From positions 1 to 28,645 of the forward strand of contig CAXHJY010000463.1 in NCBI GenBank assembly GCA_964016885.1: DNA of 28,645 nucleotides, written 5' to 3'. Positions within the stretch are counted from its first letter, which is position 1; every line of letters begins with the position of its first letter. The stretch is from Eledone cirrhosa (lineage: Eukaryota). Positions 7,667 to 28,477 of this stretch are shown piece after piece. The notes beneath the pieces were generated by a model. The model searched no databases. It was not told the origin of the DNA and worked only from the letters and a program-made list of their open reading frames with translations. The position numbers and the translations under genes were made by a program.

Positions 7667-7720
7667 ACAACGCCAAAATACTATTATTTCGGGCTTTTAA
7701 TCCATCTTCAGTGACGTGTA
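7667..7720 (-). ncRNA. Slightly degenerate minimal hammerhead ribozyme (PLE-type)
   Basis: Minus strand acgtca-CTGAAGA-tggattaaaagccc-GAAA-taatagtATT-t-tggcgt. Stem I acgtca/tggcgt, short stem III, one extra U at the cleavage junction, weak stem II. Confidence 0.55.
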
Positions 7721-8777
7721 CCGACTTGGTGTTGGGGCTAAATAAACTGACAGATTTTACGGACTTCTGCAAATAATACATATAAGGAGACGCTCAATTG
7801 CATACAACGCGGGCAAGATTGTCAAGTGAACTTCTTAAATTTGGGTCGTGTCTATATCTTAAAGGGGATAACACAACTCCTCTGAGGTGAATGGAATTTT
7901 AAGATTAACCTTCATTTGGTGAGAGTTAAAAATAAAAGACTTGGATTGACAAATACCAAATAAATAAAGCAGAATTAACTGTTGATATTCTGTGTCACAT
8001 TCTTGAAGGGTGAAAATAGTACTAATCTACATCGCATCAGAAATTAAAGTATTGCATAGTTTACAATGATTCGTATCCTAGTTAAATTACTACAAATATT
8101 TGAATGAGCAAACTTGATTTTTACGTATTTTTGTGTAAATAATTATAGTATGTTCTTCATAGACCCATCGATATGTTCTTCGACACGTCATCAGTGTTGT
8201 ATGCTAGACTCAATGGTGGTTTTGTGTCACACAATGCACATCTACACCTAGGTAAACCAGCCGAGGTTGATGAAGCTTCCGCCTATATATAAGTAGTATA
8301 CATACGACTCACCCCTACCTATTGCTTCTCAGTGATAGGTATCTAGTCTTTCTTTCCCGTTAAAGGTTAGATATCTAGACTTTGTCTCGTGTTAAAGTGA
8401 AATAAATGTTAACATGACTCAAGCAGCCCTGATACACATTCGTCGTTTCGTACTTTTTAAATACAGATTCCGTGCAGTTCGAGGGATATTTAGCTACCAT
8501 TTCTAACATAACTACTTATAATGTTGAGACCCCTCACTCGTAGTTGATATTATGACTGTTACTTTTGTTATTTTCGGATTGATATATAAAGTAACATATA
8601 TGATTTACATTTTTTTTTTTATATATACAACCTAAGGTTACCCATTTCACCTCCACCGACAAACACACACACACACAGGCAGACACATGCAGGCAAACAC
8701 ATACACACAAGCATATTAACTCTTCTCGTTGATTCTCCTGTTGTTGTTGCTCTTGTTATAATTGTCGTTGGTGTTAT

Positions 8778-8963
8778 TGGATTGGCAGTATCGGTAGAGA
8801 GTCAGGCGCCATGCTTTGAAGCATAGAGTTACCTCCCTTTATGATCTGAGTTCAAATCCCGCCGAGGTTAACTTTGCCTTTCATCCCTACGGGGTCGATA
8901 AAATAAAGTACCAGTAATGCACTGGGATAATTGCTGGCCTGGTGCCAAAAGTAGAAACAATTA
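8778..8963 (+). mobile_element. tRNA-derived SINE, family A
   Basis: A-box-like tggcagtatcgg, B-box gagttcaaatccc, core actttgcctttcatcc...gtcgataaaataaagtaccag, tail gctggcc..gtgccaaaagtagaaacaatta; nine copies in the window. Confidence 0.9.
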
Positions 8964-9207
8964 TTACTGTTATTGTAGTTTGTTCAACAACAGAATATAT
9001 TTCAACATGGCTGTCATATCATTTTGTTTTTCCTTAAAAAGACAAAACTAGACAAATACAGCAACAAAAATATCTGCTGCTACCTCCATAGATATAAACA
9101 CCTTTCGTTATTATCGTTTTTGTTGTTGTTATTGTTGTTACTATTGTCGTTATTAATGCTTTATTTAAGACAACGCTGAACTTACATATACTGAAGAAAG
9201 CATATTC

Positions 9208-9268
9208 ATCTCTCTCTCTCTCTCTCTCTCTCTCTCTCTCTATATATATATATATATATATATATATA
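9208..9268. repeat. (TC)n(TA)n microsatellite
   Basis: Directly visible. Confidence 0.9.
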
Positions 9269-9639
9269 GGTGCATACAAGATATATATATGTGTGTCTGT
9301 GTGTGTGGGGGGGGGGGGGTGTATTGCATGTATAACGTCATTATTAGTCTTCAATGTTGTTTTTGTTTTTATCGCCGCTGTTCAATACATCGATAAAAGT
9401 ATACATACCGGAACAATGCATATTTCAATCTGGCTGTCACTTTGTTTTACAACAGACACTGTCTATATATACGCACTCACGTACACGCATATATAAATAC
9501 ACACGAACACAGACGCGTATGTATATGCATGTATATACGTATGTATATATATATATATATATATATATATATATATAGATAGATATATATGTATAGACAC
9601 ATACTGGAACTAGATAATAAAATGGAGATGTACGAATAA

Positions 9640-10010
9640 AACTCTCTCTCTCTCTCTCATATATATATATATATATATATATATATATATATATATATAT
9701 ATATATATATATATATATATATATATATATATATTAAGGTATATATATATATATATATATATATTTAGGTGTACATATATATATATATTTAGGTATATAT
9801 ATATATATATATATATATATATATATATTTAGGTCTACATATATATATATATTTAGGTATATATATATTTAGGTGTATATATATATATTTAGGTATATAT
9901 ATATATATATATTTAGGTGTACATATATATATATATTTAGGTGTATATATTTAGGTGTATATATATATATATATATATATATATATATATATATATATAT
10001 ATATATATAT
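9640..10010. repeat. (TA)n microsatellite with periodic tttaggt interruptions
   Basis: Directly visible. Confidence 0.9.
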
Positions 10011-10507
10011 ACAGTCGAACACAGTTGCACGTAGTTGTTGTAATGATTTATCTAAATACAAATCCACGTGTCGTTGACAAGGCCGTGGTTATTCAATACA
10101 ATTCATTTTAGAGACATTGCTTTACAAGAACCTCGTTGAATATTCCAAGAGAAGGAGGTGCCAAACGGGACTAGACAATCAAAACAATAGTTTATTGGAT
10201 TGCCGAAGAGGACAATAACAAGAGGAACAATATTTCTGTATTTGGGAATTTTCAGAGTGTGTTCTCTATGCTAATATTTTCACGTACGCGTCAGAACGAC
10301 CGATATTATATTATTCAGTATTCGTCCCGGCGTTCCTGTTCTCTAAGATCAAACTCCACCGGCAACATCTTTTTCGTTCATCCTTTTTCGGATATACTAG
10401 TCAAGACATCTAGGGACAATTCTTTGTCTATAGGGTGGGCTAGAATCCATGACTTGATTATTTATAGATCTATTAACACAAAATGTTATAAAACAAGTTA
10501 AGGAATA

Positions 10508-10700
10508 TAATTGTTTCTACTTTTGGAACAAGGCCAGCAATTATCCCTGTGTATTACTGGTACTTTATTTTATCGAACCGGCAAGGAAGAAAGGCAAAGT
10601 TAACCTCGGCGGAATTTGAACTCAGACCATAAAGGGCCGTAACTCTTTGCTGCAAAGCATGGCGTCCGACACTCGACCGATACTGCCAATCCACCGCCCT
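10508..10700 (-). mobile_element. SINE family A, full length
   Basis: Reverse complement runs from agggcggtggattggcagtatcgg to agtagaaacaatta. Confidence 0.9.
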
Positions 10701-11205
10701 GTTAAGGATTATAATACCATATAGAAGCATAAGATCATGAACAAGATACGGTAAGCACACAAATGTACACATTTAATGCAATAACAATAAAATAAGCATG
10801 TTAAGAAATATAACTAACAACCGAGTCATGAATTCTGACCCTCCCTGTATATATCTTTCTCATTTCCTCTCTGCCATTCTCTCTCTCTTTCCCTGGAAGA
10901 AATCGGCTGAGTTCAGACCTTATGAGGAGATGGTCTCTGCCAGATTTTGAAAATGCCCCGAAAACATCGTATGTCCCTATGGCTTGATTAAGATTTACGA
11001 ATAAAGGAAGAGAAAAAATTAAGTTCTGTCCTGGCGAATCGATTCGTTCCCTTTTTCCTCCATTCTCTCGCTCTGTGTGGAAGTAATCGGTTGTTTTCAG
11101 ACCTGGAGATTAAACATATCTGTTCAGGCGGCACCAGTTTATCTATTCCTCTAAACTCGCCGTATGTCACGACGGCGTCCAGAGTGTAGGCCCTTTACAT
11201 TTTAA

Positions 11206-26243: not shown

Positions 26244-26281
26244 ACTTTTGAAAAGCATAAGAACTGTGAAACCGGTAAAGG
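26244..26281 (+). ncRNA. Third, decayed copy of the U3-A8 hammerhead
   Basis: actt-TTGAAAA-gcataagaactgt-GAAA-ccgGTA-aagg; stem II weakened. Confidence 0.55.
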
Positions 26282-26685
26282 AAACGGATAAATATTCTTA
26301 AAAAGACTCCAGTTGCATTTTCGATTTCATCTATTTTCCTTATATTTTCACTCGTGTAGCACATCTCGTTTTTTTTTCATTTAAAAAAAAACCTCATTTT
26401 CTTTAAACAAAATAATTGTTGAACGTTCAGAATATGTAACAGAAAGTCGGTATATAACAGTTTGGACTACGTTCTTGATCAAACATTAGGTAGATAATTC
26501 CCAGATACAGGAATCTAATAAACAAAAACATGGATGTTTCCCCCCCTCTCTCTCTCTCTCTCTCATATATATATATATATATATATATATAGTGGTGGAA
26601 CACTGGAAGGTAATATCCGTAGTGGTGGATCACTCAGTCCATGGGACGAGTTAGGTAGAAGTGGTTACACAACAGTTAGTTCACC

Positions 26686-26730
26686 ATACCGAGAACAATT
26701 GTTTCACCTTAGCGGATCCTCAGCTCGTAT
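26686..26730 (-). ncRNA. Minimal type-I hammerhead ribozyme, canonical core
   Basis: Minus strand atacgag-CTGAGGA-t-cc-gctaa-gg-t-GAAA-caatt-GTT-ctcggtat. Stem I cgag/ctcg (extendable), palindromic stem III aacaattgtt. Confidence 0.82.
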
Positions 26731-27997
26731 ATATATATATATATATATATATATATATATATATATATATATATATATATATATATATATATATGTGTAT
26801 ATATATATATATATATATATATATATATATATATATATATATACATATATATATATATACATATATATATATATATATATATATATATATATATATATAT
26901 ATATATATATACACATTATATATATATATATATATATATATATATATACATATATATATATATATATATATATATATATATATATATATATACATATATA
27001 TATATACATATATATATATATATTATATATATATATATATACATATATATATATACATATATATATATATATATATATATATATATATACATATATATAT
27101 ATACATATATATATATATATATATATACATATATATATATATATATATATATACATATATATATATACATATATATATATATATTTATATATACATATAT
27201 ATATATACATATATATATATATATATATATATATATATATATATCCATATATATATATATATATATATTTATATATATATACATACATATATATATAATA
27301 TACATATATATATATATATACATACATATATATATATATATATATATATATATATATATATATATATATATATATATACATACATATATATATATATATA
27401 TATATATATATATACATATATATATATATATATATATATACATATATATATATATATATATATATATATAATATACATATATATATATATATATATATAT
27501 ATATAACATATATATATATATATATATACATATATATATATATATATATATATATATATATACATATATATATATATATATATATATATATATAATATAT
27601 ATATATATATAATATATATATATATATATATATATACATTATATATATATACATATATATATATATATACATATATATATATACATATATATATATATAT
27701 ATATATACATACAAATATATATATATATATTATATATATATACATATATATATATATACATACATATATACATATATATATATATATATATATATATATA
27801 TATATATATATATATATATATACATATATATATATATATATATATATACATATATATATAATATATATATATATATACATATATATATATATATATATAT
27901 ATATATATAATATACATATATAATATATATACATATATAATATATATATATAATATATATATATATTTATAATATATATATATATATATATATATAT
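26728..27997. repeat. ~1.27 kb interrupted (TA)n array
   Basis: Directly visible; source of the long YI-repeat ORFs. Confidence 0.95.
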
Positions 27998-28071
27998 TAA
28001 AATAACAGATTAAAGTTTAAGCAATGAATCGCTGCTTTGGATTTTAGTCTTCAAATTTATTATTATTACTA
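27996..28071. repeat. Rearranged copy of sequence from 20520-20652
   Basis: First half matches 20611-20652 directly; second half is the reverse complement of 20520-20555. Confidence 0.85.
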
Positions 28072-28080
28072 TATATATAA

Positions 28081-28271
28081 AGGGCGGTGGATTGGCAGTA
28101 TCGGTAGAGGGTCAGACACCATGCTTTCCAGCATAGTTACGTCCCTTTACGATCTGAGTTCAAATCCCGCCGAGGTTGACTTTGCCTTTCGTCCTTACGA
28201 GGTCGATAAAATAAAGTACCAGTAATGAACTGGGATAATTGATGGCCTTGTGCCAAAAGTAGAAACAATTA
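28081..28271 (+). mobile_element. SINE family A, full length
   Basis: agggcggtggattggcagtatcgg...agtagaaacaatta; both flanks contain ctatatata, a possible TSD. Confidence 0.92.
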
Positions 28272-28401
28272 CTATATATATATATATATATATCAATGTG
28301 TTTACGGGTCACTTTCACGACCTTTTAGACCTGTATTAGTTGGAGTGAGGTCATATATTTTGTCGTTCCTGGGGTTTTTAACCCTAGGACAGGAAAATGC
28401 T

Positions 28402-28477
28402 TCTCTGATGATCGTTGCTTTTCCATTAATATCCTCGTGATGTTTAATGTTTTGCACCGTGAAACTGTACAGTTAGG
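28402..28477 (+). ncRNA. Minimal hammerhead ribozyme with large loop II
   Basis: tct-CTGATGA-t-cgttgc...gcaccg-t-GAAA-ctgtaca-GTT-agg. Palindromic stem III aactgtacagtt, stem II with one mismatch, followed by a T-rich tail and (TA)n. Confidence 0.75.

Follow-up and report, generated by a model that had tools for sequence, protein, structure and literature searches.

The window, by which we mean the whole 28,645-nucleotide stretch of Eledone cirrhosa DNA that was analysed, contains nine type I hammerhead motifs that pass the full descriptor and five others that are half motifs or decayed. With each site given as the first base of its CUGANGA box, the complete folds have their cores at 17269(-), 20704(+), 20854(+), 25374(-), 25624(+), 25994(+), 26248(+), 26723(-) and 28405(+); those at 25374, 25624 and 26248 have a U3-A8 core, and the stems at 26248 are weak. 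Most of the folds listed in an earlier note proved to be complete, but the motifs at 7711, 16991, 20361 and 20673 are decayed or partial, and no hammerhead lies at 19638(-): the motif of that repeat family is instead on the plus strand at ~19793, complete in 15/15 relatives and with both core boxes mutated in the window copy. The same list had overlooked 20854(+) and a half motif near 16450. A candidate at 8177(-), which lacks the GAAA and had no relative in 200 loci, was rejected. The islands are members of 11 repeat families (E1-E11), and a genome search with each of them found all 11 to be dispersed (76-4,833 first-look candidates each, with the best 40 scored per search).

The excess of motifs over chance, which the earlier note had proposed to test by shuffling, is clear. 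A revised descriptor matched the window 8 times against a mean of 0.45 and a maximum of 2 in 300 window shuffles, its strict version matched 5 times against 0.08, and the first descriptor gave 8 matches (7 distinct) against a mean of 1.25 and a maximum of 4 in 60 shuffles. In a background sample of 59 arbitrary 10-kb stretches of the genome, strict matches numbered 72 against 2.5 in shuffles. Covariation was seen in helix I of E3, where 2/6 pairs have double-sided changes among 25 distinct sequences that are related to one another, helices II and III being fixed by the search pattern. The notion that AT-rich DNA yields such motifs by chance can point to the empty site at 19638(-) and to the 15.7 matches that a loose descriptor finds per 590 kb of shuffled DNA, but it is refuted by these excesses together with family-wide conservation and covariation, and we regard its probability as negligible. 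An Rfam scan, which is uninformative for minimal motifs, returned no hammerhead family among the best 150 of 181 matches, these being microsatellite artefacts.

Association with (TA)n was borne out by measurement: 14 of 15 tested positions lie 3-203 nt from a (TA)6, the exception being 7711, at 1,530 nt. Similarly, 78 of the 92 background motifs (85%) are within 250 nt of a (TA)6, compared with 27% of positions. The palindromic helix III that had been described as often shared holds for six families, but those at 20361, 20704 and 25994 have looped hairpins instead. Finally, tblastn found no PLE reading frame in the window, in agreement with the earlier failure to recognise a reverse transcriptase (RT) or GIY-YIG ORF.

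Such frames were found upstream in longer copies of the repeats. E1 is represented by the last ~200 nt of a terminal repeat (25217..25472, minus strand, core 25374, with an internal duplication of 54 bp), by an inverted partner copy (25589..25735, plus strand, core 25624), and by a variant subfamily with weaker stems (26208..26402, plus strand, core 26248) inside the TA tail of a LINE 3' end. [quoted passage not shown] On either side of this frame stands a direct repeat at least 1,050 bp long; the two are 97.8% identical and both contain the hammerhead on the coding strand, and the repeat ends match the three window islands at 80-92%. E5 (16629..17107, plus strand) appears to be the 5'-truncated 3' end of a similar element. 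Its core at 16991 has no helix I partner in the window nor in 13/13 relatives, although the family has 2,488 first-look candidates. The colinear endonuclease frame upstream of E5 is a fragment in one copy (L105), truncated just before the linker. Judged by motifs rather than by a tree, E1 and E5 are classed as Neptune/Nematis-type PLEs.

Five further families are assigned as Hydra-type by their linker motifs, not by an RT tree. E6 (26592..26729, minus strand, core 26723) and E11 (20846..21160, plus strand, core 20854) are PLE 3' ends with complete hammerheads, that of E11 having a 101-nt helix II. E10 (19610..19880, plus strand) carries the mutated motif at ~19793 and has an inverted tail at its 5' junction (19505..19611, minus strand), while E8 (20301..20492, plus strand) is truncated inside helix II, so that its core at 20361 is a half motif folded back there, with 20301-20353 inverted. 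By eye, the E8 fold-back at helix II recurs in ~11/20 anchors; inversion points differ in other families, and no general rule is claimed. The fifth, E4, is a young short element with a complete hammerhead (body 17172..17341, minus strand, core 17269) and an inverted 28-nt tail piece at its 5' junction (17338..17365, plus strand). It is placed through a PLE-linked sister subfamily, to which the window subfamily is ~88-90% identical. Colinear endonuclease frames lie upstream of E6 (L108, L113, L117), E8 (L273, L274, L284), E10 (L338, L345), E11 (L400) and the E4 sister (L372, L373, L378, L380), and for these, as for E5, the coding evidence consists of endonuclease fragments. The Hydra CxCx5C linker is complete in E6, E10, E11 and the E4 sister and partly decayed in E8; the first four also have CxxC and CxH around a conserved E and N, as read by eye against PMC8557442. 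In the E4 window subfamily, 35/35 inspected copies begin at one site, and the ends are fixed at ~260 nt. The fixed 5' ends of E1 and E4 may partly mirror the search ranking of matches.

The remaining four families had no coding parent within 1.5 kb in searches that scored the best 40 matches each (20 loci for E2, 35 for E3, 13 for E9, and 43 rows with duplicates for E7). E3 is present at 25788..26060 (plus strand, core 25994), where a truncated body with a complete hammerhead adjoins an inverted tail (25788-25892), and as a fragment comprising the 3' half of the hammerhead plus the tail (16430..16556, plus strand). E9 (7586..7795, minus strand) is an old repeat, with 68-85% identity among matches; an extra base breaks the helix I/III register of its decayed hammerhead (core 7711), and by eye the family keeps the fold. 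In two loci a Hydra element lies upstream of E3, but it belongs to a different family, carries a hammerhead of its own and is not the E3 parent. Likewise, PLE frames near copies of E2, E3 and E7 lie on the opposite strand or past a TA tract, and were read as nesting. E3 and E9 are left unplaced, with the same origin as the other families being likely.

E2 and E7 are different in kind, being non-coding head-to-tail units of 356 and 527 bp, respectively, that occur as monomers to trimers. The window holds a 5'-truncated copy of the young E7 unit with a complete hammerhead (28287..28595, plus strand, core 28405), a head-to-head pair of E2 copies (20521-20691, minus strand, core 20673, and 20694-20765, plus strand, core 20704), and E2 fragments without a core (27997..28072). 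Both cores of the pair have A at position 4, as do 57/58 E2 matches, and that at 20673 has a helix I mismatch. Elsewhere, consecutive units carry the complete motif, in E7 at L132 (three units) and L134, L315, L319 and L327 (two each), and in E2 at L162 (three) and L164 and L015 (two each). The E2 unit has no PLE protein match. In E7, whose helix I is extended and contains an internal loop, the longest frame is 60 codons. The E7 head-to-tail junction is also present in contigs of three sequencing runs with DNA-like data; among the sequencing runs listed, no RNA run matched E7. At the DNA level, both families fit published non-LTR retrozymes or non-autonomous PLEs, and they probably borrow the enzymes of PLEs.

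The hammerhead is on the coding strand, within the 3' terminal repeat. Copies have (TA)n on their flanks and share fixed 3' ends, at the end of the repeat or, in E4 and E7, of a tail of ~80-115 nt; their 5' ends are variable or preferred, and a piece of the 3' end often stands inverted at the 5' junction. A 5' truncation, an inverted 5' copy and an optional tail were seen in E2, E3, E4, E6, E7, E8, E10 and E11, and in all families inspected the junctions are identical to those of PLE insertions. We favour, with a probability of roughly 0.88, a reading whereby seven families are 5'-truncated PLE 3' ends, two are non-coding tandem families and the other two, although unplaced, probably share that origin. 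This agrees with one suggestion of the earlier note: many distinct PLE families have repeatedly inserted at TA microsatellites, and some short non-autonomous derivatives, which it had also envisaged, have done so too.

These results suggest a model in which the GIY-YIG endonuclease, aided by the cysteine linker, would nick (TA)n, and reverse transcription would prime at a TA-like sequence in a longer-than-unit RNA. Synthesis would usually halt within a few hundred bases, often folding back. Each insertion would leave TA at both sides, and families would therefore come to nest in one another. The hammerhead would be kept in most copies only because it lies 50-300 nt from the 3' end. Going by published assays, cleavage by these motifs would be weak and would occur chiefly in dimers within tandem transcripts, and most solo copies would be inert.

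Might the islands instead be mainly self-propagating retrozymes, small circular RNAs cut by the hammerhead, ligated and reverse-transcribed in trans, with an ancestral PLE link only? In favour of this, E7 and E2 occur as head-to-tail dimers and trimers whose consecutive units carry a complete motif, and units of this kind are reported to give circular RNAs in coral, mussel and axolotl (PMC7229834). E7 also offers 98-99% identity over 39 matches, no frame above 60 codons, insertions that are 1.x-unit partial tandems, and a compensatory change in helix II at L327. However, E7 copies end at unit positions 523-527 or 114-118, away from the predicted cleavage site at 406; no pile-up of 5' ends was seen there, only one lying within 5 nt, and a loose cluster at 406-437 overlaps an AT-rich stretch and query bias. 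Furthermore, E5 has spread without helix I, seven of the 11 families continue into a PLE reading frame, and only 1/9 predicted dimers cleaved in a preprint (bioRxiv 10.64898/2026.07.22.740005). We consider this explanation unlikely.

Less probable still is an uncatalogued class of tiny hammerhead elements, concentrated at this locus and with its own mode of spread, as the earlier note had ventured. The frameless window, the four families without a parent and the fixed ends of E4 are compatible with it, and no dedicated octopus or cephalopod hammerhead paper, indeed none pairing hammerhead ribozymes with cephalopods, was found in a literature search with subscription papers mostly outside its coverage, so that one may exist. 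Nevertheless, this idea fails and the PLE reading holds because the missing frames sit upstream in longer copies of 7/11 families; in addition, all inspected families have PLE-like junctions, and the two ORF-less families match kinds already described. Nor is the locus a hotspot: from the background, 6.1 motifs would be expected per TA cluster (P = 0.42) and 3.3 per base (P = 0.05), and the window contains 7. Extrapolating from the 59 stretches, we estimate 2-6 x 10^5 motifs genome-wide. A GIY-YIG search returned 10,597 candidates, of which 150 were scored, and all 150 exceeded the cut-off.

As a class, then, PLE-derived hammerhead islands matter little, being already known. Their interest lies in the very high density, in the family-wide U4-to-A core of E2, and in the scale. 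Natural variants by the hundred thousand, belonging to young families whose coding parents are available, could serve as an extensive resource for asking what hammerheads do in PLEs, since a single genome has amplified families whose motif is complete, weakened (E1 variant), altered (E2) or missing (E5 helix I). Young tandem units such as E7 could likewise provide clean test cases for animal retrozymes as non-autonomous PLEs, a proposal so far argued mainly in vertebrates. It is possible, though doubtful, that no animal genome described so far is denser in hammerheads than this one (a motif every 5-14 kb or so, with dozens of TA-targeting PLE families) and that this genome also hosts live retrozymes. 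On that reading the 527-bp and 356-bp units would make circular RNAs, PLE enzymes would copy these into (TA)n, and the 356-bp unit would cleave with a natural U4-to-A core not found in print. A narrow search, of the main text of PMC3088659 and part of PMC4209133, did not turn that core up, and it may be in print.

The U3-A8 and U10.1-U11.1 variants have been published before, as have truncation, inverted 5' pieces and (TA)n targets. From truncated PLEs, Cervera and de la Pena (2014, PMC4209133) reported motifs that are solo, lie on opposite strands or have the U3-A8 core, and their pseudo-LTR hammerheads resemble ours in lying in terminal repeats, mostly as solo copies of truncated elements, in forming opposite-strand pairs 100-700 bp apart, in the U3-A8 core, in an extra base before helix II, in the palindromic helix III and in the many divergent families per genome. 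They differ in number, with about 2,000-9,000 per genome there against our estimate, although the descriptors differ, and several families here have a looped helix III or a helix II that is very long, at 49-101 nt. PLEs with tails and inverted 5' copies, and with (TA)n as their target, were described by Craig et al. (2021, PMC8557442), whose Hydra-clade elements share with ours the C-terminal GIY-YIG, the CxCx5C linker, the CxxC and CxH motifs, a hammerhead near the 3' end and (TA)n insertion; what differs is that at least five separate Hydra-type families lie here in one 21-kb stretch. Neptune/Nematis-clade PLEs have the same order of RT, CX2-5CxxC linker and GIY-YIG, a microsatellite bias and partial tandems. 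Lastly, E7 and E2 resemble non-LTR retrozymes or non-autonomous PLEs (PMC7229834; MRC1 in PMC8557442) in that their non-coding units are arranged head to tail, each bear a single type I hammerhead and occur as monomers to trimers in a PLE-rich genome, and their lengths fall inside the 51-972 bp range of the above preprint. In contrast to those elements, they are known here from DNA, E2 has A at core position 4, and both have (TA)n on their flanks and inverted 5' pieces in the manner of PLEs.

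Eight matches, seven of them distinct, were obtained in the window with a descriptor for type I hammerheads that specifies helix I, the core box, helix II, GAAA, helix III and UH; 60 shuffles of the same sequence averaged 1.25. Once A was also permitted at core position 4, the revised descriptor found eight distinct motifs, compared with a mean of 0.45 (maximum 2) in 300 shuffles, and five against 0.08 when stricter stems were imposed. Both counts exceed those of shuffled sequence. The motif at 20854(+) is also complete, making nine; its helix II of 101 nt is outside the descriptor's range, and a homologous motif was found in 6 of the 67 loci scanned. 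The note had listed 13 hammerhead positions: eight are complete, four are half or decayed motifs (7711, 16991, 20361 and 20673) and one, 19638(-), was misplaced, since its family carries the motif on the opposite strand, some 100-150 nt farther downstream. On the minus strand at 19120-19240, inspection by eye suggested another decayed hammerhead, with two core changes; no relatives of it were found in 200 loci. At 20704, 25994, 26723 and 28405, and in many unrelated background families, the closing pair of helix II is U-U in place of G10.1-C11.1, a substitution whose frequency in this genome is high. In PMC3088659, U3-A8 and U10.1-U11.1 are described as tolerated and U4C as weakened.

The motifs had also been said to lie mostly beside (TA)n. 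Indeed, all but one of 15 positions have a (TA)6 tract no more than 203 nt away, but so much of the window is TA-rich (half of its complex positions are within 250 nt of such a tract) that the association is better judged from a background sample. This comprised 59 stretches of 10 kb at round-number coordinates (60 were requested, one of which does not exist), and yielded 72 matches with the strict descriptor against 2.5 in shuffles, and 92 against 4.7 at a stem score of at least 9. Here, 85% of motifs lay within 250 nt of (TA)6, compared with 27% of positions, and motif count increased with TA clusters (rho 0.55). Scaled by length, the background predicts 3.3 matches for the window, and scaled by TA clusters 6.1; the window has seven. 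Fifteen background motifs come from a single 10-kb stretch (G000:C28:110,000,001-110,010,000), where units of about 421 bp are repeated head to tail, every one of them enclosing a short (TA)n tract and a type I hammerhead. Solo copies of this family occur elsewhere, and the array is clearly a retrozyme-type satellite.

The window is an entire contig (G000:C490), unplaced in an assembly of 3.0 Gb and 1,796 contigs that, to judge by resemblance, is presumably that of an octopod cephalopod. (TA)n and (CA)n are plentiful in it, and a SINE-like repeat of about 185 nt occurs in nine copies (8778-8964, 10507-10700, 11203-11368, 11423-11558, 13166-13354, 15410-15545, 15923-16103, 16214-16389 and 28088-28274). 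This repeat, whose copies here are mostly surrounded by ATT-type repeats, was found in 15 of 20 background stretches. The minus strand of 458-6674 is about 6 kb of (GTT/GGT)n; it can be read in long segments, of up to 1,379 codons, as a mucin-like frame rich in Pro and Thr, whose frame changes may be assembly errors. The 3' ends of an RT-bearing LINE, which we take to be RTE-like, lie at 25487-25588(-) and 26067-26195(+), and in several loci its TA tail is the target for island families E1 and E4.

Every island proved to be a fragment of a dispersed family, with 76 to 4,833 first-look candidates per family, the best 40 of which were scored in each search. A GIY-YIG search of the genome gave 10,597 candidates. 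Among 40 loci taken at such matches, one (L073) has a 938-aa frame between two copies of the E1 island, scoring 28.3 bits for GIY-YIG (above the cut-off) and 28 bits for RVT_1 (slightly below the cut-off of 29.6). The protein contains GxKF, DKG, YLDD and C-x4-C-x2-C motifs, and its atlas neighbours at 0.98 bear HTH_animal and GIY-YIG. The direct repeats flanking the frame extend over at least 1,050 bp at 97.8% identity, their last 200 nt being 92, 89 and 80% identical to 25217-25416, 25589-25745 and 26208-26402 of the window. For E5, colinear DNA upstream of the island led to a GIY-YIG fragment (one copy), and for E6, E8, E10 and E11 to frames with CxCx5C, CxxC and CxH, given as clade-defining for Hydra in section 11 of PMC8557442. 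E4 has a single start site in all 35 copies inspected, but in a subfamily 88-90% identical to it a Hydra frame is reached after 1.2 kb of upstream sequence. With E1, and with E4 via the subfamily, seven of the 11 families are therefore PLE 3' ends, in agreement with the suggestion that the islands derive from many distinct PLE families. Additionally, core position 4 is occupied by C in the hammerhead of a PLE family of Hydra type (loci L288-L303), which is young, with copies 96-99% identical, and gave 1,606 candidates. In 5 of 23 E11 copies (L384, L390, L396, L397 and L403) the SINE-like repeat directly precedes helix I at the same base, which may mean that this site is hit preferentially or that the two were amplified together as a composite.

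Other families have no reading frame. E7 is a 527-bp unit, with 98-99% identity among matches, that occurs as truncated monomers, as partial tandems of 1.x units and as arrays that reach three full units; complete motifs are present in consecutive units. Its 3' ends fall at unit positions 523-527 or 114-118, while its 5' ends vary (43 rows, some loci counted twice). E2, a 356-bp unit, behaves likewise; in 57 of 58 matches, overlapping loci being counted twice, its fourth core position is A. No coding parent was found in the loci inspected for E3 (longest form about 480 bp) or the old family E9. At L317:1221-1446 a truncated E7 copy abuts an L017-type PLE frame in opposite orientation with no TA between, a faint lead to the element mobilising E7.

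As to selection on the fold, E3 helix I is paired in 90.7% of cells, with double-sided changes at two of six pairs, among 25 distinct motifs that are related sequences with helices II and III preset by the search pattern. Its covariation score was reached by none of 500 shuffles, and two double-sided pairs by 110 of 500. The absence of helix I from all 13 E5 copies, and the 3-bp stems of the E1 variant at 26248, argue against a strict need for activity.

In the islands, the position and strand of the motif were observed, as were nesting, flanking TA, 3' ends that are fixed and 5' ends that are truncated and inverted. A linker-bearing endonuclease would nick (TA)n, a hypothesis raised in PMC8557442. 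Priming would take place at TA-like sequence within a longer-than-unit RNA, and an early stop would be followed by fold-back. The abundance of hammerheads would be explained by the proximity of the motif to the 3' end. Lunse et al. reportedly described dimeric cleavage in 2017. In published assays a lone minimal motif did not cleave and dimers cleaved at low levels (PMC4209133), and one of nine dimers cleaved (bioRxiv 10.64898/2026.07.22.740005, 2026). Hammerhead activity, if any, would be expected in tandem transcripts of E7 and E2 and in full-length parents.

Extrapolation from the background gives 3.5-4.4 x 10^5 motifs genome-wide (bootstrap range 2.2-6.4 x 10^5); published counts, obtained with other descriptors, include about 2,000-9,000 (PMC4209133), more than 6,000 in coral and 126,247 in axolotl (PMC7229834). 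Octopus Naiads with a (TA)n preference are listed in File S1 of PMC8557442, and 30 recently active Penelope families are described in Octopus vulgaris, in an account whose opening parts do not mention hammerheads (PMC13282606). The cluster in the window is a real feature, but its arrangement was already known; its worth lies in motif density and in two young tandem families.
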